Origin: Vezdaea acicularis
Taxonomy: Eukaryota
DNA length: 20,000 bases
NCBI GenBank assembly: GCA_026025075.1
Contig: JAPEUI010000036.1
Coordinates: 116,276 to 136,275 of the forward strand
Reading direction: 5' to 3'
Below the pieces are notes generated by a model. That model was not told the DNA's origin. It made no database searches and was given only the letters and a program-made list of their open reading frames with translations. The position numbers were made by a program, and so were the translations under genes. Below are positions 1,763 through 20,000 of the stretch, piece after piece (positions within the stretch are counted from its first letter, which is position 1; each line of letters begins with the position of its first letter).

Positions 1763-3014
1763 ATGCAAGGGTTCAGTAAGTGCTCCCCCCAATACTCCAT
1801 CACCATGCTAACTTAGCTTTAGACATGGGACGGTATGCTCTTATTGCAATAATGTCTTCAGTCAAAAGATCCCCTAATATCCCTACAGCTATGTCCCGCC
1901 CGATCTCGAAGGGACTGTCTCCGCCAACAAGCTCGCGGGAAAGTACGTATCTCATATCTTCTATACACCTTCATTCTAAACACTATATAGGAACGCCCTC
2001 GGCGCCCGCGCTCGCAAGTCCTCTCAAGGTATCTTGACCGTGCGCTTCGAAATGCCCTTCCCTATATGGTGTACGACCTGCCCCAAGCCCACTATCATAG
2101 CTCAAGGCGTGCGCTTCAATGCCGAGAAGAAGAAGGTTGGCAACTACTATAGTACGGCAATCTTCAGCTTCCGCATGAAACACAATGTCTGTGGTGGGGC
2201 GATCGAGATCCAGACTGACCCGAAGAACACGGCCTACGTCGTTACCGAAGGTGCGAAAAGGCGGGATACAGGAGAGGATAAAGAGACTGCACTTGGGGAT
2301 GGCGAGATCTTCCTGGAGGGAATGCGGGTTGGGGAGGAGGTCAAAGAGAAAGATCCATTTGAACAGGCGGAGGGGAAGGGTGCGGATAAGGCGGCGGCAA
2401 CGGAGCAGCAGACAAGGGTCAAGGAGCTCAAGAGGTTGCGGGATAGGGATTGGGCGGATCCTTATGAGGCGTCTCGGAGGCTAAGGAAGCCCTTTCGGGA
2501 GCAGAGAAAGATCAGGGAGGCAGATGAGGCGAAGGGAGAGCACTTGGCAACGATTTATGGGCTGGGTGTAGAGATGTTGCCGGAGATCCAGGAGGATGGA
2601 AAGAGGGCAGCATTAGTTGAATTTGGAGAGCCAAGGGCTACCATTGAGGGAGAGGACGCTCTGAGGGAAGTGGCAGGGAAGCCATTGTTTGGTAATGGCA
2701 AGGGGGAGATCAAGGGTACGGAGATGCCTGATGGAAAGAATCGCAAGCGTAAGGAGAAGCCGGAAGACGTTGCAAAAAGGAAACGCGAGGCGCTGCAGAG
2801 AGAGCTCAGGGGTAATACCATGGCTGTAATCGACCCGTTTCTCGGGATTGGAAAGGACTTCAGGTCTAATAATGGACGTATCATTCCGGGAGTAAAGAAG
2901 AAATTAATGAGTTCCATAACAGTCAATGACGAAGTCGAGCTCGAGGAAAACAATGTCGGGGCAAGGCCAGTGGAGCAAACGCTACGGCTGGTGGACTACG
3001 ACTCAGACGGCTGA
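1763..3014 (+). CDS. YJU2B: CWC16/Yju2-family splicing factor, CCDC130/YJU2B (Saf4)-type, 366 aa; exons 1763-1775, 1823-1832, 1889-1942, 1991-3014
   Basis: Three GT-AG introns (1776-1822, 1833-1888, 1943-1990) give [56 protein letters not shown]...GVRFNAEKKKVGNYYSTAIFSFRMKHNVCGGAIEIQTDPKNTAYVVTEGA. This matches the CCDC130 N-terminal Zn-binding domain as I recall it. Spliced length 1101 nt is divisible by 3. Confidence 0.9.
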
Positions 3015-3462: not shown

Positions 3463-6400
3463 CTAGATGGGCTGTGTTGGGCCATGGCTCGAGTTCGGTG
3501 GTGACATCTCTTGGATCATCCTATCCAAGAACGTGTCAGTAAAGTTCGAGCCGAGCGTGGAAGTCCAACACACTGAACGCTTACCTTCTTGTCTCCGCTT
3601 TTAGGTCTAGATTCTCCTTCTTAGCTAGTTCTAGCTGTTTTTTTACCTGCGCCATCTAGTTTTTGTCAGTGTGAGTCCAATGTGGATCGTACAATCTTCG
3701 ACGAGGTCAGCAGCAAAAGCTGTGCCTAGTCTTCCAGGACAGGGTCTTTGGCTCATCGCATCAGGAACCAAAGGACGTCGCCCCTGGGACCACGCACAGC
3801 CCTTGCCATCAACTTCATCTGCACCGTAAAACAACCCCAAAAAGCTCTGCTCCAAAGAATCAGAAGGAAAGGGCGCCCACAGTGCCTGCACTCCCCACCA
3901 CCGAAGAAGTTTTCAGAACCTCACCTTCCTTCCCCAAAACACCCCCATCCTCTTCCTCATCCTCCGCCCACTTGCTCTTCTCAAGTCCAGTTGCTGGAGC
4001 TTCAGCCTTTGAATTCATAGCCTTTGCCTGCTCAGCTGCTAGCTGGTCCTTCAGGAGTTTGTTATCCTCATGTAGTTGGTCTACTTCGCGCTGCAAGGAC
4101 TCGATTTTGGTAGTAAAGACTTGGTTGAGGTCTTGAATGTCCTTTGTGGAGGATTCCTGGGATTTGGTGGCAGCGCTTTTATGCGCAGCAAGCTCTTCCT
4201 TTAACTTTTCAAGGGCCGATTTGTGTTGCGTAGCCTCTGCTTGCGATTTGCTAAGCTCCGTTGCATGCCCTTCCTTCAGTTCCTGAATATCAGCCTTCAG
4301 CTTGTCTGCTTCAGTAGTGTCAGGCTTCACGTTCTTAGCCGCATCTAGATCAGATTTGAGCTTCGAGATCTCCTCGTCGTGGGATGCCTTTAGATTGTCT
4401 AGTGCGCTTGCATGTTTTTTGGTTTGTTCAGAATATGCGTTGCCCGAGGCTTCATGCTTCTCTTCCAGATCTTTGATTTGGGTTGTGAGCTTGGATACGG
4501 CTTCCTTTTCTTTAGAGAGCTCAGATTTAAGGGCTTCAATTTGATCAGTATAATGCTTCTCGAGAGCCGTAGTGTCTTGCTTTGCTTTGGCCGCGTCAAG
4601 GCTCTTCTGATGGTCTGCCTTGAGAGCCTCGATCTCCGCAGTGTGCTTAGAGCTCAAATCGGCTTCTTTGGCAGCTGTGGCGGTTTCCAAAGCTTTTGAA
4701 TGGTCACTCTTCAATACAGTAATTGCATTTTCATGAGCTGTTTGCAAATCATGTTGAGACGCGTTCGACGCGTCAAGCTTCTGCTGCCAATCTTTAAGGG
4801 CGACTTCATGGTGAGATTGCAGCTCAGAGAGCTGTTTCGACCGAGAATCCTCGTGCTCGGCTTTCAAAGCTGCGATTGCCTCAGCATGTTTCTTTTCGGT
4901 CTCGGCCTTGTCCTTGATGAGAGCGTCATGCTTCTCTTCTAGCTCCTTCAACTTCTCTTTCTGCTTTGATTCAATGGTTTGCTCCAGCGCCTCGAATTCG
5001 GTGGCATGATCATCACTCAAACTTCTCAGCTGATTCCTGTGTCGTTCTTCCAAGGTCGTAATTTCCTTGGCCTTCTCATCCAAGCTTTTAGCGGTCGCGC
5101 TATGATCGGCTTTAACTTTAGACAACTCAGCCGCGTGCTGTTCATCCTTGCCCTTTCCTTCCTCGTCCATCGTATCTAGGGCTTTCTTTATGCTAGCGAG
5201 TTCCGCCTGAGCCTCCTCCAAAGCTTTGCGTTCCGCTGCGGACTGCGTTTGTAGGAGGTTCAACTGCTCTTCGAGACTTGTTCTTGCTTTGGTCGCCTCT
5301 GCTTCTGCTTCACCAAGTCGCTGGGTATGAGCTTCACCCAAGTCTCTTGATGCAGACTCATGGCTACTTTTGAGCTCACTAATAGCTTTTTCATGCTCTT
5401 TGCTTAATTCATTGACCTTCTCGGCTGTTTCTTGGCTGTGCGTTTCATGTAGCTTTCGCAACTCGTTTTGAAGATTCTCAACGACTTGGCCTATGCCTTT
5501 GATTTCATTATCCCTTTTCTGGATCGCCTCCTCGTGTGACAAAGATGCACTTTTTGATGAGCTTTCGGCCTCTGAAAGGGCTGCGCTAAGCTCTGCAATT
5601 TTCTTTTCTGAAGCAGCTGCCGCTTCCTCATGACTAGAAGTATACTTTTTCAAAGAGTCTGATGTCTCTTGATGGGCTGATATTTCATTGTCCCGAGCCT
5701 CCGATATGGCCTGTAGCTGTGACTCATAGGATTCGCGAAGATGGGCTATTTGACTATCATGGGCCGAGCGAATGTTCTGCTCTGCTTCTTTTACAAGCTC
5801 AGATTCCTTTGAAGCGGCATCACCAAGCTCCACAAGCTTCGCCTTAGAGGCTTCGAGCTCTTGCTCCAGTTCTGATGTCTATTTTATATTTGTGAGCACA
5901 AAATTTACCTATAGTGGGATAATTGTTAAAAGGGAGGAGGGGCTCACTCTTGCGTCGCTAGCTTCAGCTCTTCCTTTTAGGCTCTCAATTTCTGCTTCCA
6001 TATCTCGAGCAGTCTCGCCGTTCGTTGTTTCTGTGGCCGCGTGGCCCTCTTTCAGAGTCTGAACCTCAGCTTCCAACTCGTGTACGCGGTCTCGTAAAGC
6101 ACTTGGATCCTTTGACGTTGCCGATACGCCTGTTGTACTGCGTGCGGTCGTCTTCGGTGCCGGAGAGCTTGATATCGCACTCAAGCGCTTCCTGGCATCC
6201 GCAACTGCACCAGTAGCAGCAGTCTTAGTCGAGTTCGCTGCTTCTCGGACTCTAGTTGTAGTAGAGGGGGGGCCTCTCGATACGGCCGTAGCGCTGGTCG
6301 TGGATGGCTTTGAGGGACTGTTATTGTTGCTGAGAGGCTTGCGAACCGTGCTTGTAGAAGGATTAAGACTCGATCGACGATCTGCAGTGGACGCGGGTTT

Positions 6401-6889
6401 AGTCACAGGGGACCTTGCGGTCCCGGACCCCGTTCCAGCCAAAGACATTCTCTTCGCCGTGCCACCCAAAGGTTTTTTATCATTGTCTGTAGAACTTGTG
6501 GATGGATGCGATTTGTGTCCCGATGAAGCCGTTGGCCCCGTAGCAGTACCAGCTGTGCGGCGTATAGTGGAGCCGGGAGGAGGACGGGTAGGGGGCTTCG
6601 TCAACCCGCTGCCCGGTACGGCTCTTGCGGTGGATGCTGGGGTTCCCTTTGGTGCCGAAGTTGTACCAGATCCAGCTACACGTTTTGCTGTAGTTATAGG
6701 CCGCTTGGGAGGTACAGAAGTTTTCTTCGCTGGTGAGGGCGCGGATGTTTCTTCACCCACGCCTTGCGCAGGCTCAGTTCCGTCCGATGCAGGAACTTCT
6801 TCAGAGGGTAACTCTTCTGTCACCTCATCAGCAGTGGGTTCCTCCACTGTCGCTAGGGCAGCTGGAGACTGTTCTTCAACGTCGGCCAT
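3463..6889 (-). CDS. Uncharacterised 1022-aa protein with a basic S/T/P/K/R-rich disordered N-terminus and a long coiled coil; exons 6889-5948, 5878-3881, 3655-3585, 3520-3463
   Basis: ATG at 6889 (MADVEEQ). Intron 5947-5879 (GTGAGC...GCTCAC...TAG) joins ASDAR|TSELEQELEASKAKLVELGD. Introns 3880-3656 (GTGGGC...ACTGAC...TAG) and 3584-3521 (GTAAGC...ACTGAC...TAG) add MAQVKKQLELAKKENLDLKAETRRMIQEMSPPNSSHGPTQPI*. The body is rich in E/K/A/L/H heptads. The last two exons are less certain than the first two. Confidence 0.8.
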
Positions 6890-7683
6890 TTTTCTGAATC
6901 CTAATCTAGTGGTGAGAACAGGGAAGTTGTGCGTGAAGTAGCGATGACAGAAAGTTGTGATAGGGCGTGATCCCAAAGATACAATGAGATTGACGACGTA
7001 ACGAAAGTCGGCAGCTGTCTTTTTAAAGCTGCCAGCAGTGTGGACGACACGTCACAATGGCCCTAAAAATATTGTCATTCGCTTCACGTGAAGAAGCAGC
7101 TTTACGAGACAGCTGAGTATTGAAGGACTTGTAGCTCGTCGCTCCGCAGGTATAGGATACACAATTGATGCAGCAGGGCGAATGGAGATTTCGGGACCAG
7201 GGCGGAGAGCATCAAATTACCCGCGACCCAGATAGAGAGATGGGCGGTAAGGTGCTTTGGATGAGACGGTAGCGGAGAAGCGCGTCCTCTCGCCGATCGC
7301 GAAGGTGTGTGGCGCCCTATCAAGAGAGTGCGTGCAGACCAGGGGGAGGCTTTACATTTACAGACGTTAACCGAAGTATCTTTGCACCCAACTTGGGTGA
7401 GCCAATCCTCGCTACTGTCACTGTGGCACCAGCTATCATGTCAAGCGTGTGCACAGTCTGCATGGCCTGTGCCCAGTGGGGCCGTAAGCGGAAGTCAAAT
7501 CAAACGAGCTCCTCTTCGCAGATCCGATCGAAAGCTTCGGTCTGACCTGAGGGAGACCCTGAGATTGGATTACTAAGATTAAGGGTATATGCAACGAAGA
7601 GCCTCTGCTCAGTGGCAGCCATGGTATCATGTTAAGACAGAAATCCTAAATGCTCTATCATCTCCATCGCGAAGAAAATTGCA

Positions 7684-8504: not shown

Positions 8505-9078
8505 TGAACCTGCATGTAGAATACGTCAATTGAGTAGATTACCACGAATAAAAAAGAGCAATTCACCTTGACCTCTAACGCTGAACGTATGAAATATCCC
8601 TCTGATGTCAGCTGTGGCCAGAAGCCAGAGCTCTGGCCCTTTCGAAAGCACTTATTTAGTTGCTTCACGTTACGAGCATGGTATTCATAGTTGAGGTCGG
8701 GAAGCGCAATGCGGAACGCGAAGCGAAGGCGGCAGCACGTGTGTATCATGGCCTCAAGAATAATGTAATACAAACTGATATAAGGCTTATTGCGATTTCA
8801 GGATGTATGTATGCTTTCTAGAGCTTTTGGACGGTAATTTAACGCGCTCATGATTGGTGTCCGTTGCCCAAACCACAGAAACTCAGCGAGCTCCCCGAAG
8901 ACCAACTGACCATTGGACAAGACACAAAACAATCGCTTGGGCAGAGCCCGAGGACCTTTCCCTTGATCACTTGTTTCGTGTGTTAGATTTAGACTATACG
9001 CAACCTGTTCACTTTGAGCACTATGTAAAGTCTGTAGATCTATCACGTCGTCAAAATATCAGTGTGCTTTAAATCACC

Positions 9079-10564
9079 ATGGCTACTGCTAAACCTACCG
9101 ACAAGGAGCATGGTCATAACAACCAAATTGATGGGAAAGAAACGCCAGATAAATCCTCGGTGCTTAGAATCAGGCGGCTCTCTATTCTTACCCAAGAGGA
9201 GGCGAGCGAACACGTCTTCACTGTGCCAGTGAAAAGGATACATGACGGTCACGATGTTACACGTTTCTTGTCTTCTAAAGCCTACAGGAGCATCATGACT
9301 TTCTTATATCAACTAAATACAGCTATGTATCCAAGGACCTCTGTTTCTGATCCGAATGATCCTGATTCGATACAGACCTGGGAACTGGACTCACCATCGA
9401 TCCAAACCTCGAATTCTGTCAAGAAGCTTCAAGACTTATTCCGCAAGCTTGAAGAGATTATTGATGAAGCTCCGCCAGACCCGGGACCACAGCGATTTGG
9501 TAATGTGAGCTTTCGGACATGGTATAAGCTGGTCGAAGAGAGGCTGCCGGTTCTTTTAAAAGAGTATCTACCTGCCGAGATCCTAGCCAATGACCGTGGC
9601 ACGAAGGCGGATAGTTGTGATGCAAAGGACGAGTTACTAGTGTACCTACTTGGGAGTTTTGGAAGTGCACAAAGACTAGACTATGGGACAGGCCATGAGC
9701 TTAGCTTCCTCGCTTTTCTAGGTTGCATCTGGCTGCTAAGGGGCTTCACTGGACCAGATTCTGAATCAATAGAGCGAAGTATAGTAATTGGACTTATTCA
9801 ACCGTACGTTCCCCTTACTCCTGGTGGCTCAATACTCTTGTGCTGAATGACGTTCAAATCTATCAGCTATCTTCAACTGGTACGTCACTTGATTAAAATC
9901 TATAATTTAGAGCCGGCAGGTTCGCATGGCGTTTGGGGCTTAGATGACCACTCATTTCTTCCTTATATCTTTGGATCAGCACAATACTCTCCGGTGCTAG
10001 CCTCATTAGACAAAATTCCGATGGAAGGCTCTCGTCTTGGAGCCCCAGCCCCTGGAGACGTGGTCAAACCGGCAGTAGTTGCTGCCCAGCGGTCCCGTAA
10101 CATGTACTTTTCTGCAATTGGCTTCATACAGGATGTAAAGAAAGGGCCATTCTGGGAACATAGCCCTATTCTCTATGATATATCTGGCGTCCGAGCGGGT
10201 TGGGCGAAAATAAATAAGGTATGTGTGGCGAGGTTGAATCTTGAATTTTTCCTTGCTCGGCTTACGGTGGCAGGGAATGATCAAAATGTACAGTGCAGAA
10301 GTTCTCTCAAAGTTTCCAGTTGTTCAGCACTTTCCCTTTGGGTCGCTCTTTAGCTGGGAACTGGATCCGGAAGCTGTAACTACATCTCAATCAGTACATA
10401 CATCTAGCCATCCTACTCTGGCTGGATCCGCTACAAATCAGGTCAGTGCTGCAGCACTTCGGGGGGCACCTCAGGCAACCGCGAGAACATCGCCAAGTGG
10501 TTCGACCGGCGTGCAAGGTTTAGCTTTCCAAAGTCGCACGCCTGCACCTTGGGCTACAAAATAA
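9079..10564 (+). CDS. RRD1: Serine/threonine-protein phosphatase 2A activator (PTPA, Rrd1-type), 455 aa; exons 9079-9803, 9867-10218, 10274-10564
   Basis: PTPA motifs [106 protein letters not shown]. Introns 9804-9866 and 10219-10273 restore the frame. Confidence 0.93.
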
Positions 10565-12374: not shown

Positions 12375-13043
12375 CTATCTCTTCTTGCTGATGACCTTGG
12401 TGAATCCTTCCTCATCGACTTCTGGCTTAGGCTTCTCACGAGGAATATTAGTAGACGTGACCTCGCTCATATTCGTATCTCCTTCATCGTCTTCGTCCTC
12501 TTCGCAGTCATCGCTGTCCCAGTCCGTTTCGTCATCTTCGTCTGTCCTTTCCACCTTCTTAAAGGTTCCTGCTACGGGCTTCCCCTTTCTTGCAAGCCAA
12601 GCCTCATTGAGAGAATCAACTTGGCTGAAATCACCATCAAGTGTCTTCTTCCTTATGGAAACTATATTTTCAGCCACTTCGAATGCTGTGTCGTCTTCTA
12701 CGTTGACCTCAAACTCATCAAACATGACCTGCAGTAGCACAGTCTCGACATCTTCCAAATCCGTCTCTGGGCGAGTAGCGAATAAGTCGCAGATCGCTCC
12801 TGCAAACCACTCGCGCTTTGCTTCACTTTCGGAGCCACCCCACTGACTCTGCACAGCAAGAGTGAGAGCAGGCCAATTGAATAAGGCTAAAGTAACGCCA
12901 AGCTCGAACTTTGCTTGGATTTGAGCTACCCCAAAGTATCAGCTGAGGTATGTACGGACACAAATGACCGTACCACTCGTTGGGAACTGCAGTTTCGCCG
13001 TATTCCTAGCTTCGTTATTGTCCATTTTTGAAGTTCCTGACAT
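12375..13043 (-). CDS. TSR2: Pre-rRNA-processing protein Tsr2 (WGG domain), 206 aa; exons 13043-12974 and 12925-12375 (alternative ATG at 13025)
   Basis: FELGVTLALFNWPALTLAVQSQWGGSESEAKREWFAGAI...DVETVLLQVMFDEFEVNVEDDT, an acidic tail and terminal VDEEGFTKVISKKR. The 48-nt intron 12973-12926 (GTACGG...GCTGAT...TAG) contains an in-frame stop. Confidence 0.92.
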
Positions 13044-13305
13044 CGTTGACGTAATCTAATATAAATGTTTAGGTTATGCACGAGTTTTTAGTGCTTGTTT
13101 TTAGCTGTCGATCCGAGCTCTCGGCAAATCCCCCTTGAGCTCATGCTTAGCCGCTGACGTATGCGCACCACGGCTCCGGCTCATGTGTGGCTATAGCTTG
13201 CGGTGCACGGAGCTTACTTTCGAGCTGCTGGCGATGAGTATGAAACTCTTATTGCTATGAGAATGTCTCAAAATACAGAGCAAAATGAATACCTGACCGT
13301 TCAAT

Positions 13306-16166
13306 ATGCCTTTCAACACTATTACCGTAGGCAGCGCGGTGACCCCTACCGTCATCGAAACATGGCTTTCTCATGTGAGTTGAGCTGGACAAGGCGATGA
13401 AGCTAGACATCATACTTACGAGAAGTGTCAGTACCTAAACCGAAAGCCCTTGCGACAGAAGCCTACAGCCCATGTATCGTACCATGAGGGGCTGGAGCTG
13501 ATTCGGCAGTTCCTTCTTTACGCGTCACATCATACGGTAGAAGAGATACAAGCTTTCACGTCTCAATGGGTTCCGAGCCCTAGATGGGTCAAGGTTCAGG
13601 AAGCGAAGGTTCCTGAAGAAACACTCTCGAAGGCCGCAGAGATACTCCGGCATCAGCTTGGTCACCATGGTATATTGAGAGTCGGAGGCAAAACCTGGTG
13701 GCAGTGGCGACGCCATGGGACCGAGCTGGAGGCTGAATGGATCGAGATGAGGAGTGACTATCAAGAGCGCAAAAAGACTGGCGACAAAGGAAACAAGATC
13801 ATGCTATACGTTCATGGCGGCGCATACTTCTTCGGGAGCGTAGACGAGCATAGGTACCAGATGCAAAGGCATGCGAGAAAACTGAAAGCCAGAGTGTTTG
13901 CCCGGTAAGCATCAAACAGTCCTCAATTGCGATTACCCATCTGACAGTCACAGTGAGTTTTCTTGAATATACCCATAATCTCATGCTCACGAAGATAGCC
14001 CGATATCGTTTAGCCCCCCAATTTCCATTTCCGTGTGGCTTGCACGATTGTCTCGCAGCATATCTATACCTCCTTAAGGAGTACGATCCTTCCAACATAA
14101 TTCTTGCAGGTGACTCGGCAGGAGCCGGCATGGTAGTCAGGTAATTTGAGAACCGGGTCTAGCTTGATGGTAGAGACTAATGTCTAGCACAGCATTCTTG
14201 TCACTTTGCGTGATCAAGGTATTCCTCTGCCGGCCGGAGCTATCCTGATCTCTCCGTGGGTCGACCTCACACACTCATTTCCCAGCGTTGCGGGCGACAA
14301 CAGCTTGGATTATATACCCAATTGTGGCTTTCTGCATCGACCTTCTCCTGCATGGCCTCCCCCAAACACAGACGACATGATAGAGATTGCTATGACGGCA
14401 GTGGGGCAAGTTGCGCAAAAGCTTGGGGACTCAAACGACCAAGATGCAGTACAAGGGTTTTCTGTCACCGAAAATCCAGACATACCGCGTTCAGAACAGC
14501 ATGGAGGATCCGCTGCCGCTGGCACGGATAACCCTACTGGGGTCGGCGGCAATACCGCTCCCGGACCAGGCCATGAATTGTCCATCATGCTTGACGGTAA
14601 TTTAGTGGAGATCAAAGACCAAATACAGATGTATGCAAACAACCAATTGATATCTCATCCGCTAGTTTCCCCCGTTCTTCAGCCATCCCTTGGAGGTCTG
14701 CCACCATTGTTGATTATGACTGGAGGCGGAGAAGTGCTGCGGGATGAGCAGATCTACCTTGCTCATAAAGCGGCCAACCCGTCAAAATACCCTCCGGGCG
14801 ATGCGTATCTTGACAACGACCACGGCAAAGATGATGTATCAAAATGGAAAGGCACGGATGTACAGCTCCAAGTATGGGACGACTGCTGCCATGTCGCGCC
14901 AACACTAAGCTTTACTCGCCCGGCCAAATATATGTATCGCTCAGTTGCGCAATTTGGCGCTTGGGCTCTAGCCAGGGCCCAAAAGACGGAGATCGAGATC
15001 ATGGATGACGATGACGTTTCCGTCATCTCCGAAGATTCGGAAGACGGAACCGGTGAGAGAACCGCAGATGGTGATATAAAAAGAACGCAGCAAGTTGGAG
15101 AACTTGCGGGCACCCAGCAGGTTGGCAAAGCTGGAGACGCCTTGCCCCCTTTTAGGAATCATATGATCCGAGAGCGCGTTGACCGTCATGGTAACATATT
15201 TCCTCTGGCGCCTGCCTCGGTACTTCCGGCGCTTCAGCTACGCCCGAGCGAGATTGGCGTGATCAAAGCTGGCCCTACCCAGAAATGGATGGCAGCAAAG
15301 AAAAAATGGGATACGAAGTACGCCCGGGAAAAGCGAAGGGTTCAGAAGCAACGAGCAAAGGAAATGGCAGCTGGATTCGAAGGGTTCGGAGACGATGAAG
15401 TCCCGCCACCAAGCGCCTTGGCTGGCCGTCGAAGGGCAGATATGCCGAAAGAAGCCAAGAAGGGAAGGAGTTGGGGAATGAGTCTCTGGAGTGTGTGGGG
15501 AAGTAGCCATGATGAAAAGACGGTACGTCGTGGGCCATTTGTCCTTACATTTGGGCTCAATAAAGCACAATCGAACACATCACTGACTCGCACCCCCCTC
15601 AGCTCGAACGCGAAGGAAAAGCCGGCAAAGTCCTAGAAAGCACAGCCGTGAAAGCTGAGTTGGGCAGTGCAGAGGCTCGCTCTGATTCCCAAAACCGCCC
15701 TTCACGCTCCCGCCGAAGGACCGTCACCGACGCAGGCCAAACCTCTGCTGCAGGAAATGGCGCATTCGAAGAAGCCGACGAAACCGCATCAGCAGCAGAC
15801 ATCCTAAGCAAAAAGGACGAAGACCCGAATCGACTGGGCCCACCAGCTACCGCAACTTCTTTCGCGCGAAGCGAATCTACGCCCGGTGAGTTGAAGCCCT
15901 CGCATCTACGCCCAAACGTCGGACCGGTGGCATACCCCTTCAAGCTCGCGCCAAAAGACGGCCAGGAAGTCAATGCAAGTACCATGACGCTGGAATCTGC
16001 TCGTGGCGTATTAGCACCTGCGCACGAGGGAGGGAATGGTAGTGCGGAAGTGGCTGATGCCGAGCACGAGAAGGTTGCGGGTGGGGACGGCGAGGGTGTT
16101 GGCGCTGTACGGCCTGAGCCACATACTTTCGTTACGGCGAGTGAGGGGTTCGGGGATCTGAGATAG
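13306..16166 (+). CDS. HSL-family (abhydrolase_3) lipase/esterase, LipS-like, 858 aa; exons 13306-13374, 13432-13903, 13999-14140, 14193-15522, 15603-16166
   Basis: Oxyanion motif [23 protein letters not shown], nucleophile [33 protein letters not shown]. Introns 13375-13431, 13904-13998 (nested), 14141-14192 and 15523-15602. Spliced length 2577 nt is divisible by 3. Confidence 0.92.
13904..13998 (+). other. [D1,2] spliceosomal twin intron (stwintron): internal intron 13905-13953 interrupts the donor of the external intron (G13904 + 13954-13998)
   Basis: G|GTAAGC...CTGAC-AGTCA-CAG|TGAGT...GCTCAC-GAAGA-TAG. Excising the 49-nt internal intron rebuilds donor GTGAGT of a 46-nt external intron. 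Only this route yields the conserved [13 protein letters not shown]. Confidence 0.88.
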
Positions 16167-16748: not shown

Positions 16749-19110
16749 CTAAACTTGGCAGGTGTTATCGTAGAAGAGATAAGGACTATTATGTGTAGGC
16801 ACGAGGAGGTCATTCGCAATAACCTCAGCGTAGCCTGTGCAGGACTCGATGCTGGATCCATACGCGAACGCCTTGCATCCGGACTTCGCAACGCAGAGAG
16901 CCTTGCAAGCTTTGAGCGTTTTGACTCCAGTCCCGATAGTGCCTAGATAGTGGTCTTTCCCCTCTAAACCGTTAGAATATGCCGGTCCTGCTCCACAGGT
17001 TCCATGCGAAGGTATGGTGGTGGCCGTTGTGGTATGGACGGTGGTGGAAGAAGTTTTGGTGGCGGTGGCGGATGTGATCAGGCATGCGCAGGCGCTGCTA
17101 AGGCTGCTGGGGCCATAGCTCAAAACGCTCGAGAAGATCTCGTTGGTAGTAGGTAAGTAGCGCCTTATCTTGGGGATGGCCTTGGCCTTGGTAATGCTAG
17201 GAGTGAAGTCAGATTGGAAAGCATGGGAAGCGAATTGGGAGAGACGTACACAGTAGGCTCGGGGCCGTTATGTGTAGTCTTGGTGTATGAGCTGCAGAAT
17301 GAGCTTGCAGAGGTGCTATAGCGTTTATCAAGGAAAGAACGGAGAAGGTCGTCGTGATGGCATATGGTCGACGGGCCTGATTGGTCATTAGATGAGTCGA
17401 TAGTTTATTGCGAAGCTACTGACTTCTTGCTTCAATGGTTGCTTCAACAGTTGCTTCAACGGTTGCTTGAACAGTTACTAGCGATAGAACGCTTGTTACC
17501 AGGCTCTGAATTGGGTGAGGGCGTGAGCTCGTCGAGCTAGTCGAGGTTGTTAAACGGGTTGAGGTTGTCGAACGGGTGGAAGTTGACGAACGGGTCGAGG
17601 TCGACGAACGGCTAGAGGTCGTGGAGCGAGTCGAGGTCGTCGAACGGGTGGAAGTCGACGAACGAGTCGAGGTCGTGGAGTGAGTTGAAGAAGTCGTGGG
17701 ACGAGTGGAAGTCGTCGAACGGGTCGAAGTCGACGAACGGGTCGAGGTCGTGGAGTGAGTTGAAGAAGTCGTGGGACGAGTAGAGGTAGAAGTCGTCGAA
17801 CGGGTCGAGGTCGTCGGACGGGTGGAAGTCGACGAACGGGATGAGGTCGTCAAATGGCTTGAGGTCGTCGGACGGGTGGAAGTCGTGGAGTGAGTTGAAG
17901 TCGTGGGACGAGTGGAAGTTGACGAACGGGTCGAGGTCGTGGAGTGAGTTGAAGTCGTGGGACGAGTCGAGGTCGTCGAACGACTAGAAGTCGTCGAACG
18001 GGTGGAAGTCGACGAACGGGTCGAGGTAGTTGAGCGAGTAGAGCTCGTCGAATGGCTGGAGGTCGTCGGACGGGTCGAAGTCGTCGAACGAGTGGAGCTT
18101 GTCGAACGGGTCGAGGTCGTGGAGTGAGTCGAGGCGGTCGAACGAGTCGAAGTCGACGAATGGCTCGAGGTTGTCGGACGGGTCGAGGTGGTCGAACGAG
18201 TCGAAGTCGACGAATGGCTCGAGGTTGTCGGACGGGTCGAGGTGGTCGAACGAGTCGAAGTCGACGAATGGCTCGAGGTTGTCGGACGGGTCGAGGTGGT
18301 CGAACGGGTTGAAGTCGTCAGATGGCTTGAGGTCGTTGAGCGAGTGGAGCTCGTTGAATGGCTGGAGCTCGTCGGACGGGTCGAGGTGGTCGAACGAGTC
18401 GAAGTCGACGAATGGCTCGAGGTTGTCGGACGGGTTGAGGTGGTCGAACGGGTCGAAGTCGACGAATGGCTCGAGGTGGTCGGACGGGTCGAGGTGGTGG
18501 AATGACTTGAGCTTGTCGAGCGAGTCGAGGTCGTCGGACGGTTTGAGGACGTCGAGTGAGTGGAGCTCGTCGAATGGCTAGAGCTCGTCGGACGGGTCGA
18601 GGTCGTTGAACGGCTAGAGCTCGTCGAATGGCTCGAAGTTGACGAACGGCTCGAGGTTGTTGGACGGGTCGAGGTCGTGGAGTGAGTCGAGCTTGTCGAA
18701 TGCCTCGAGGTAGTAGAGTGAGTCGAGCTCGTCGGACGGGTTGAGCTCGTCAAACGGGTGGAACTCGTCGAATGGCTGGAGCTCGTTGGACGGGTCGAGG
18801 TCGTCGAATGTTTCGAGGTCGTCGAGTGAGTGGAGCTTGTCGAGCGAGTCGAGGTCGTCCGATGGGTGGATGTCGACGAATGGGTGGAGCTCGTCGAGCG
18901 GCGGGAGGTCGTTGAATGGCCCTTTGAGCTGCTCAGGTGGTCGCAGGGTACTATTTGCGATCCACTGTAGCAGCGGACGTCAAATTCAACAGGGAGTCCG
19001 CTAGTATGAGCGGGGGCTTCGCTAGAATGGACAGAGGCTGATTTGCAGTGGGGTTCACAAGCAAGGGCTCCGCTTGAAAGAGCAAAGAGCACGATAGTAG
19101 TCAACAGCAT
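16749..19110 (-). CDS. Secreted mucin/adhesin-like protein, 753 aa: signal peptide, Ser/Thr-Arg/His hexapeptide-repeat stalk, Cys module, C-terminal PAN/Apple-like domain; exons 19110-17424, 17376-17250, 17196-16749
   Basis: ATG at 19110, MLLTTIVLFALSSGALA-C signal peptide. Introns 17423-17377 (GTCAGT...CTAAT...CAG) and 17249-17197 (GTACGT...CTGAC...TAG) join the 580-aa and 124-aa ORFs via ICHHDDLLRSFLDKRYSTSASSFCSSY...SSLSSACACL. The C-terminus CKALCVAKSGCKAFAY...C...FYDNTC is PAN-like. Spliced length 2262 nt is divisible by 3. Confidence 0.85.
17530..18920 (-). repeat. Coding minisatellite: 18-bp unit (hexapeptides STTSTR/PTTSSH/SSTSTR) with a higher-order 54-bp unit
   Basis: About 1.4 kb of GTCGA-rich tandem units. 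Three identical 54-bp copies at 18136-18189, 18190-18243 and 18244-18297, plus a near-identical copy at 18388-18441. Confidence 0.95.
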
Positions 19111-20000
19111 GTTGCTTGAGGTCGAAACGCGATCAAAGAACGACGTACGTGAGTGCAATGAGAATAAACAGGTTCGTGTCGCCGCACGGTGATGCTCAAG
19201 ATCGGAGAGAGAAAAGACCCGTAGGAAAGGAAAAAGCTGGAATCTTTATAGAAAGACACCTTCTCATGAGGTAGGCTAACAATCTCAACAACATGTTGAG
19301 ATGGGAAAGAGTCGCAAGCTAACCCATGGTCGAGCTAGCTTCAGTAGCCACGATATATTTGTATTCAGGGCCGTGATAACGATGCATATCACGAGGGACA
19401 TCTCATGATGTGCAAAATCCGAGGAATCCCCACGCTAGGTCCGTGAGAAGTTGTATGAAGAACATAGAATCGTATTCTCTGCCGCAACAGATACGCTATC
19501 ATTCCTCTAATGGGTCACCTGTAAATTGATGACGGATCTGCTCCTTCGGCATGCTCGCTATCAAGAGCATCAGTGGAAGTCGTCATAAGATAGAATGCAC
19601 ATGCGTTAGGATATTTAAAGGCATCCATTGTCTCGACCACGGGTAGTTGCCGAGCCATTGGTTCAGCGTAATTCAGTCGTGCTTCGCAGAAAATGGTGAG
19701 GCTCTAATCTTTTTCCGTGTTGAGTATTGCCGCAAGCTAGAGGATGGCCCTGAGGTTTGGGGCAGAGTCGTGTGCGTCATCGCCGCCAAATTCATGAGGC
19801 TACTATTCCTCTCCGTGTCTTGACCATGTTGTTCGAAAGCCAAGGTCATGTGACGTGCTACCAAGCACATTTCCACCCTTAGCATGCGGTTTTTGGTAAG
19901 CGAGCACCTTCAACCGAAGCCGGACGGTGGCCCTTCCACCACCTATCCGAAAAGCCACGGAGCCATCTGCCACCGTCGGCTAGAGAGCAGCAAGCGCTTC

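Follow-up and report, generated by a model that had tools for sequence, protein, structure and literature searches.

The 20,000-nucleotide (nt) window analysed here (Vezdaea acicularis contig JAPEUI010000036.1, positions 116,276 to 136,275 of the forward strand) carries a fungal lipS gene, and the segment at 13904-13998 of the window is very probably the [D1,2] spliceosomal twin intron (stwintron) of that gene, a nested element removed in two consecutive U2 splicing steps. The analysis establishes the anatomy of the element, the reading-frame logic that it imposes, its orthology with a published element and the conservation of its layout in related DNA. The element is already known and represents neither a new mechanism nor a new class.

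An earlier reading of this DNA from its letters and open reading frames (the sequence-only reading) had named the bases and coordinates of the lipS junction, and all of them agreed with the sequence when 13200-15300 of the window was read directly. Exon 2 ends in GTG TTT GCC C, with C13903 as its last base, and is followed by a lone G at 13904, nucleotide 1 of an external donor, which is cut off from the rest of that donor by an internal intron. This internal intron (13905-13953, 49 nt) consists of GUAAGC (13905-13910), 29 nt, UCUGAC, 5 nt and CAG (13951-13953), with CTGAC at 13941-13945 and A13944 as the branch A. The remainder of the external intron (13954-13998) makes up 46 nt when G13904 is included and reads G/UGAGU (TGAGT at 13954-13958), 26 nt, GCUCAC, 5 nt and UAG; it thus has its own candidate branch site (GCTCAC, 13985-13990, which fits the CURAY motif in all but one position) and its own acceptor (TAG, 13996-13998). 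The two parts add up to 95 nt (49 + 46). Exon 3 starts at 13999 with CCCGATATCGT and holds the GDSAG codons at 14110-14124, and the Pro codon is split in phase 1 (GTG TTT GCC C / stwintron / CC CGA TAT CGT). Loss of 13905-13953 puts G13904 against UGAGU and generates a consensus GUGAGU donor.

In the proposed mechanism the first step would remove the 49-nt internal intron and join G13904 to UGAGU, giving an intermediate with the junction 13904/13954 (...GCCCG/TGAGTTTT...). The second step would then remove the 46-nt external intron up to the UAG ending at 13998, so that C13903 would be joined to C13999 to make CCC, the codon for Pro181 of V-F-A-P-R-Y-R, and the mature RNA would carry the junction 13903/13999 (...GTGTTTGCCC/CCCGATATCGT...).

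Splicing outcomes were enumerated by combining all GT or GC donors at 13860-13975 with all AG acceptors at 13930-14030, for one-step introns with a length of at least 35 nt. This gave 71 one-step candidates, 8 of them in frame with exon 3 and free of stops, and none of the 71 GT/GC-AG candidates restored the conserved VFAP-RYR junction. One-step removal of 13905-13998 leads to VFARPISFS...IPP and a stop at TAA 14075-14077, while the same donor, GTAAGC, used with the acceptor AAG at 13994 gives VFAR and an immediate stop. From this strong donor the frame stays open solely with GAG at 13957, at the cost of fifteen residues in place of one. Nine [D1,2] combinations were enumerated, and the consensus donor G/TGAGT was regenerated solely with the internal intron 13905-13953, the remaining combinations regenerating G/TCACA or G/TTTTC. 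Taking out 13905-13953, and then G13904 together with 13954-13998, is the one route that carries the frame through VFAP-RYR into GDSAGAG. The enumeration yielded no candidates for an [A2,3] arrangement, the base after the 3' intron being C13999 and not G. It also yielded two micro-exon solutions, and the one that uses the strong donor has TCACA (13948-13952) as its micro-exon and gives VFARHTRYR.

The protein family points to the same junction. The Pfam family Abhydrolase_3 (PF07859) matches on exons 2, 3 and 4, and the exon 2 match ends at profile position 33 (Phe) while the exon 3 match begins at position 37 (Tyr), so the two matches fall short of the profile by exactly one residue, between Ala and Arg. 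This one residue of the profile is the Pro supplied by the nested splicing model.

A [D1,2] stwintron in lipS was described by Flipphi et al. (2017; PMC5639578) in Aspergillus nidulans (locus AN7524, 53 + 46 nt) and A. niger (52 + 57 nt), where it lies in phase 1 within the Pro codon of Val-Phe-Ala-Pro-x-Tyr-Arg. According to that paper the first intron of the Aspergillus genes lies 69 nt past the ATG, between His23 and Tyr24, the exon after the stwintron is 142 nt long, and the third intron divides a Ser codon 47 codons downstream. The gene in the window belongs to the same family and has the same Pro codon, phase, 142-nt exon and first and third intron positions as the Aspergillus genes (PMC5639578), and its internal intron is likewise placed between G1 and U2 of the external donor, with GUGAGU regenerated. 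The external intron is 46 nt both here and in A. nidulans, while the internal intron is 49 nt here compared to 53 nt in A. nidulans and 52 nt in A. niger, making totals of 95 nt compared to 99 and 109 nt (PMC5639578). The other differences from the published Aspergillus genes (PMC5639578) are the residue after Pro (Arg here, Asp or Lys there), the external branch site (GCUCAC here, GCUGAC and GCUAAU there), an extra fourth intron at 15523-15602 which gives five exons where the A. nidulans and A. niger models have four, and the length of the protein (858 amino acids here, 871 and 909 there). Splicing of the Aspergillus genes was verified on RNA (PMC5639578); the element in the window was read from DNA.

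Table S2 of the same paper gives lipS stwintrons of 95-149 nt that begin about 590-620 nt after the start codon (PMC5639578). The element in the window, at 95 nt, equals the shortest entries of that table (A. wentii and Marssonina brunnea), and its offset of 598 compares with 594 in Cladonia macilenta and 605 in Lasallia. Its offset and length also fit the range of the Lecanoromycetes and Leotiomycetes in Table S2 (offsets of about 590-615 nt), for example Cladonia, Umbilicaria, Lasallia, Gyalolechia, Ramalina and Marssonina (PMC5639578). The paper reports the lipS stwintron as present in Eurotiomycetes, Lecanoromycetes and Leotiomycetes and absent in Sordariomycetes and Dothideomycetes, and as never giving way to a plain intron within Leotiomyceta (PMC5639578).

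Related DNA was collected by scanning metagenomes with exon 2 aligned to 18 homologues, and the 80 loci returned were sorted by tblastn with exons 2 and 3 and then by inspection. The site lacks an intron in 48 of the 80 loci, 42 of which have the Pro codon alone between the exons; the other 6 had seemed to carry plain introns of 46-53 nt, but these were tblastn artefacts, as the DNA runs on without a break as Pro-Lys-Tyr-Arg-Leu and the intron that it does have is a different one, further downstream. The remaining 32 loci have an intervening sequence of 95-125 nt, representing 28 distinct sequences, and a plain intron at the site was found in none of the 80. All 28 distinct sequences start C/G/G(T/C), one of them with a GC donor, all have an internal YAG or AAG with a T after it, so that a GT donor is regenerated, and all end AG/CN, which makes the Pro codon complete. 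Counting the window as well (29 sequences), the regenerated donors are GTGAGT (22), GTAAGT (3), GTGGGT (2), GTAATT (1) and GTAAGC (1). Internal introns in the related loci are 47-68 nt long (median 52), a range that takes in the 49 nt of the window, and external introns are 46-57 nt long (median 49). The sequence AG/G(T/C) stands exactly 142 nt after the start of exon 3 in 31 of the 32 loci, and the contig of the remaining one ends too early. GC-AG variants also occur, with GCAAGT starting the internal intron of one locus (L016) and the third intron of another (L012).

The [D1,2] structure claimed by the sequence-only reading is thus borne out by the sequence, by the enumeration and by all 28 distinct related sequences; the orthology with the lipS stwintron, which it had called probable, holds in intron position, phase, the 142-nt exon and the His23/Tyr24 intron of the published genes (PMC5639578), and the [A2,3] route that it had called closed gave no candidates.

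The same 95 nt could in principle be excised in a single non-canonical GG-AG step without any intermediate. The mature product would be identical, and no computation made here separates one step from two; the single step is nevertheless very unlikely, as intermediates lacking the internal intron alone were cloned and sequenced, along with complementary DNAs (cDNAs), in A. nidulans and A. niger (PMC5639578), and as it leaves unexplained an internal donor, branch site and acceptor and a regenerated GU donor that are conserved in all 28 distinct sequences.

Other named stwintrons differ from this one in instructive ways. The alternatively spliced [D1,2]/[A2,3] stwintron of a DHA1 antiporter gene (Fekete et al. 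2017; PMC5587772) likewise has a [D1,2] internal intron in the external donor, but its [A2,3] route depends on a G as the first base of the following exon (PMC5587772), where the window has C13999. The bioDA stwintron, of the [D2,3] type, is also ancient, conserved, donor-disrupted and located at an old intron position, but it is found in a different gene and its internal intron separates nucleotides 2 and 3 of the donor (PMC5639578). Loss of the bioDA stwintron has usually left a plain intron, whereas at the lipS site none was seen in the 80 loci examined here and none is reported in that paper (PMC5639578).

Protein homologues were collected with exon 2 as the query among longer proteins, giving 1212 matches at E <= 0.001, of which the best 120 were listed and sorted by their sequence at the junction. 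The best are fungal alpha/beta hydrolase fold-3 proteins, 74-79% identical over exon 2, from Leotiomycetes, Lecanoromycetes and allied lichen fungi, and no identical protein was present among the 120 listed. Of these, 81 (mostly from Sordariomycetes and Dothideomycetes, or entries without a taxon name) read xxxP-x-YRL with no insertion or deletion. In 25 the junction reads 'xxAR' and the YRLAP exon is then absent or garbled, in 11 'xxAR' is followed by an insertion of 2-18 residues and then YRLAP, and in 3 the junction model is wrong in other ways, so that 39 of the 120 are mis-modelled. The 'AR' arises because predictors read C-G-G into the codon ahead of GT; the 36 'xxAR' models therefore show that many species do have the extra G and that gene finders fail at this junction, as the sequence-only reading had predicted and as happened with the automatic annotation of AN7524, which overlooked the stwintron (PMC5639578).

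Many of the mis-modelled homologues lack the catalytic GDSAG exon, examples being models named Chlorociboria, Diplocarpon, Thelocarpon, Xylographa and Teloschistes. One further homologue (P0030), on a contig of 4.9 kilobases, has the uninterrupted junction ...TPRYRLAP and is 85-89% identical to Usnea (and Alectoria) models (P0046 and P0050) that have 'AR...' at this place. Its source may be a transcript from a related lichen fungus, showing the mature junction, or a species in which the introns have been lost.

These comparisons bear on whether G13904 is real. If it were a sequencing or assembly error the site would be a plain 94-nt intron, and if the gene were a pseudogene it would simply be broken. 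A single extra base is a common type of error, but the extra G is present in all 32 related loci with an intervening sequence and is implied by the 'xxAR' models in 36 of the 120 listed homologues, a plain intron occupies the site in 0 of 80 related loci, and elsewhere the gene has good splice sites and a frame that stays open for 858 codons. We consider an error or a pseudogene vanishingly improbable.

The homologues also bear on the canonical alternatives from the enumeration. One is an ordinary 53-nt intron at 13905-13957 (GUAAGC...GAG), with 13958-13998 remaining as coding sequence and 15 residues replacing Pro181. It is the sole in-frame and stop-free one-step solution from the strong donor, and analogous read-through models have been annotated in some homologues, such as the insertions in P0027, P0037 and P0074. 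Against this, GAG makes a poor acceptor and the same branch site is followed first by CAG 13953, upstream of the GAG, the insertion would fall within a conserved core where neither the Pfam profile nor 81 of the 120 listed homologues have an insertion or deletion, and only 10 of the 29 distinct sequences offer an in-frame single intron from the main donor, with unrelated lengths and residues, as expected by chance. We therefore give the 53-nt intron a very slim chance. The other is a pair of ordinary introns, 13905-13947 and 13953-13998, around the 5-nt micro-exon TCACA (13948-13952), which would give VFARHTRYRLAP. This arrangement is in frame and free of stops, it uses a GTGAGT that is physically present at 13953-13958, and similar short insertions (WTR, TR, VAR, EYSR) occur in some annotated homologues; it is nonetheless extremely unlikely, since its branch A13944 would stand merely 3 nt ahead of the AG at 13947, it adds 2 residues to the motif that has no insertion or deletion in those same 81 homologues, micro-exon solutions exist in 14 of the 29 distinct sequences with varying length and sequence, and none is found in the Aspergillus cDNAs as published (PMC5639578).

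Several points do weigh against the nested stwintron. The two canonical alternatives, the 53-nt intron (which adds 14 residues) and the TCACA micro-exon, are both present in the sequence, and either may yield a minor product. The external intron lacks a strict CURAY branch motif, with GCUCAC as the best candidate, and a strict motif is likewise absent in 7 other distinct related loci. The order of the two steps, the intermediate and the mature junction in the present fungus are ones that we infer from Aspergillus. The pattern GGTAAG-N30-60-YAGTRAGT has a single match in the 20-kilobase window on both strands (expected 0.01, with matches in 2 of 200 shuffles), although it was devised after the site had been seen and its significance is thus somewhat overstated. 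Conservation in all 32 related loci with an intervening sequence is a stronger argument than this estimate of chance.

The sequence-only reading had also proposed that the stwintron gates expression of the lipase gene, with mis-spliced or intermediate RNAs coupling it to nonsense-mediated decay (NMD). The early stops that it noted are there, as unspliced RNA meets TAA at 13906-13908 and the first-step intermediate reads VFAREFS followed by a stop, but early stops are found in most retained introns and are a general rule, not a special feature. The gating is unsupported, and so is the coupling to NMD. A search by terms of the main texts of PMC5639578 and PMC12403724 found no statements on NMD or regulation by stwintrons, and PMC6616335 has solely one generic sentence in its introduction. 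The stwintron is best read as inherited gene structure, and a regulatory role is not demonstrated. It is quite unlikely that the nested layout acts beyond this as a kinetic or quality checkpoint, in which splicing in the wrong order, for example removal of 13953-13998 first by way of the GTGAGT of the primary transcript, would be a dead end with an early stop. If this were true, the efficiency of the first step, together with the decay of mis-spliced RNA, would tune LipS output, and it could explain why each of the 80 related loci has either the complete stwintron or no intron at the site, with no plain intron among them.

The complete lipS gene lies on the forward (+) strand and was modelled as five exons. 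Exon 1 (13306-13374, 69 nt, 23 codons from the ATG to His23, CAT) begins where the tblastn matches of homologues begin, at 13306, and intron 1 (13375-13431, 57 nt, GTGAGT...CAG) falls between His23 and Tyr24 (TAC), as read from the sequence. Exon 2 (13432-13903, 472 nt) contains the HGGA oxyanion motif, matches Abhydrolase_3 positions 1-33 and has the 74-79% identity to the best fungal homologues given above. After the stwintron, exon 3 (13999-14140, 142 nt) completes Pro181 (C/CC) and matches profile positions 37-85 with an E value of 5e-13, and intron 3 (14141-14192, 52 nt, GTAATT...CTAAT...CAG) divides the codon of Ser228 (AG/C). Exon 4 (14193-15522, 1330 nt), seen by tblastn and in the sequence, matches positions 140-190. 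Intron 4 (15523-15602, 80 nt, GTACGT...ACTGAC...CAG, phase 0) was placed by a change of frame in the homologue tblastn between 15531 and 15702, and the joined frame is open; exon 5 (15603-16166), again seen by tblastn and in the sequence, ends with the stop TAG at 16164-16166. The spliced product has 858 amino acids and no internal stop, and is a putative hormone-sensitive-lipase-like alpha/beta hydrolase with Abhydrolase_3 in its N-terminal half. Its PF07859 matches and its length, within the roughly 800-950 amino acids of the fungal homologues, are those of a LipS orthologue; the 120 homologues listed do not include the A. nidulans protein.

Elsewhere in the window, frames at 2-1293, 1980-3014 and 9073-10353 (forward strand) and at 12375-12938 and 16749-17267 (reverse strand) match Pfam families. 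The families among the neighbouring frames are a DUF747 membrane protein (in two pieces), a Saf4/Yju2 splicing factor, a PTPA phosphatase activator (in two adjoining frames) and a TSR2 pre-rRNA processing protein, and there is one PAN-domain frame. For two large reverse-strand frames, 3860-7051 and 17416-19245, no clear Pfam family emerged.

In a quickly built tree of this single gene (50 proteins, LG+G4, with SH-aLRT support only) the LipS of the window grouped with Vezdaea and three Thelocarpaceae (SH-aLRT 97), and this group stood beside the Lecanoromycetes. Vezdaeales and Thelocarpales are leotiomyceta incertae sedis at NCBI, and neither order is among the entries of Table S2 (PMC5639578). 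This suggests that the lipS stwintron also exists in a lineage near Vezdaeales and Thelocarpales which was unsampled in 2017, and in Thelocarpon, Vezdaea and Candelaria we infer the stwintron solely from 'xxAR' protein models. This modest extension of the known range, from one gene and a short search, is the sole and small addition made here. The window and the 32 metagenome loci otherwise repeat the published pattern of a stwintron or nothing at the lipS site, and recognising the stwintron leads to the correct protein of 858 amino acids in a family whose automatic models are often wrong at this junction.

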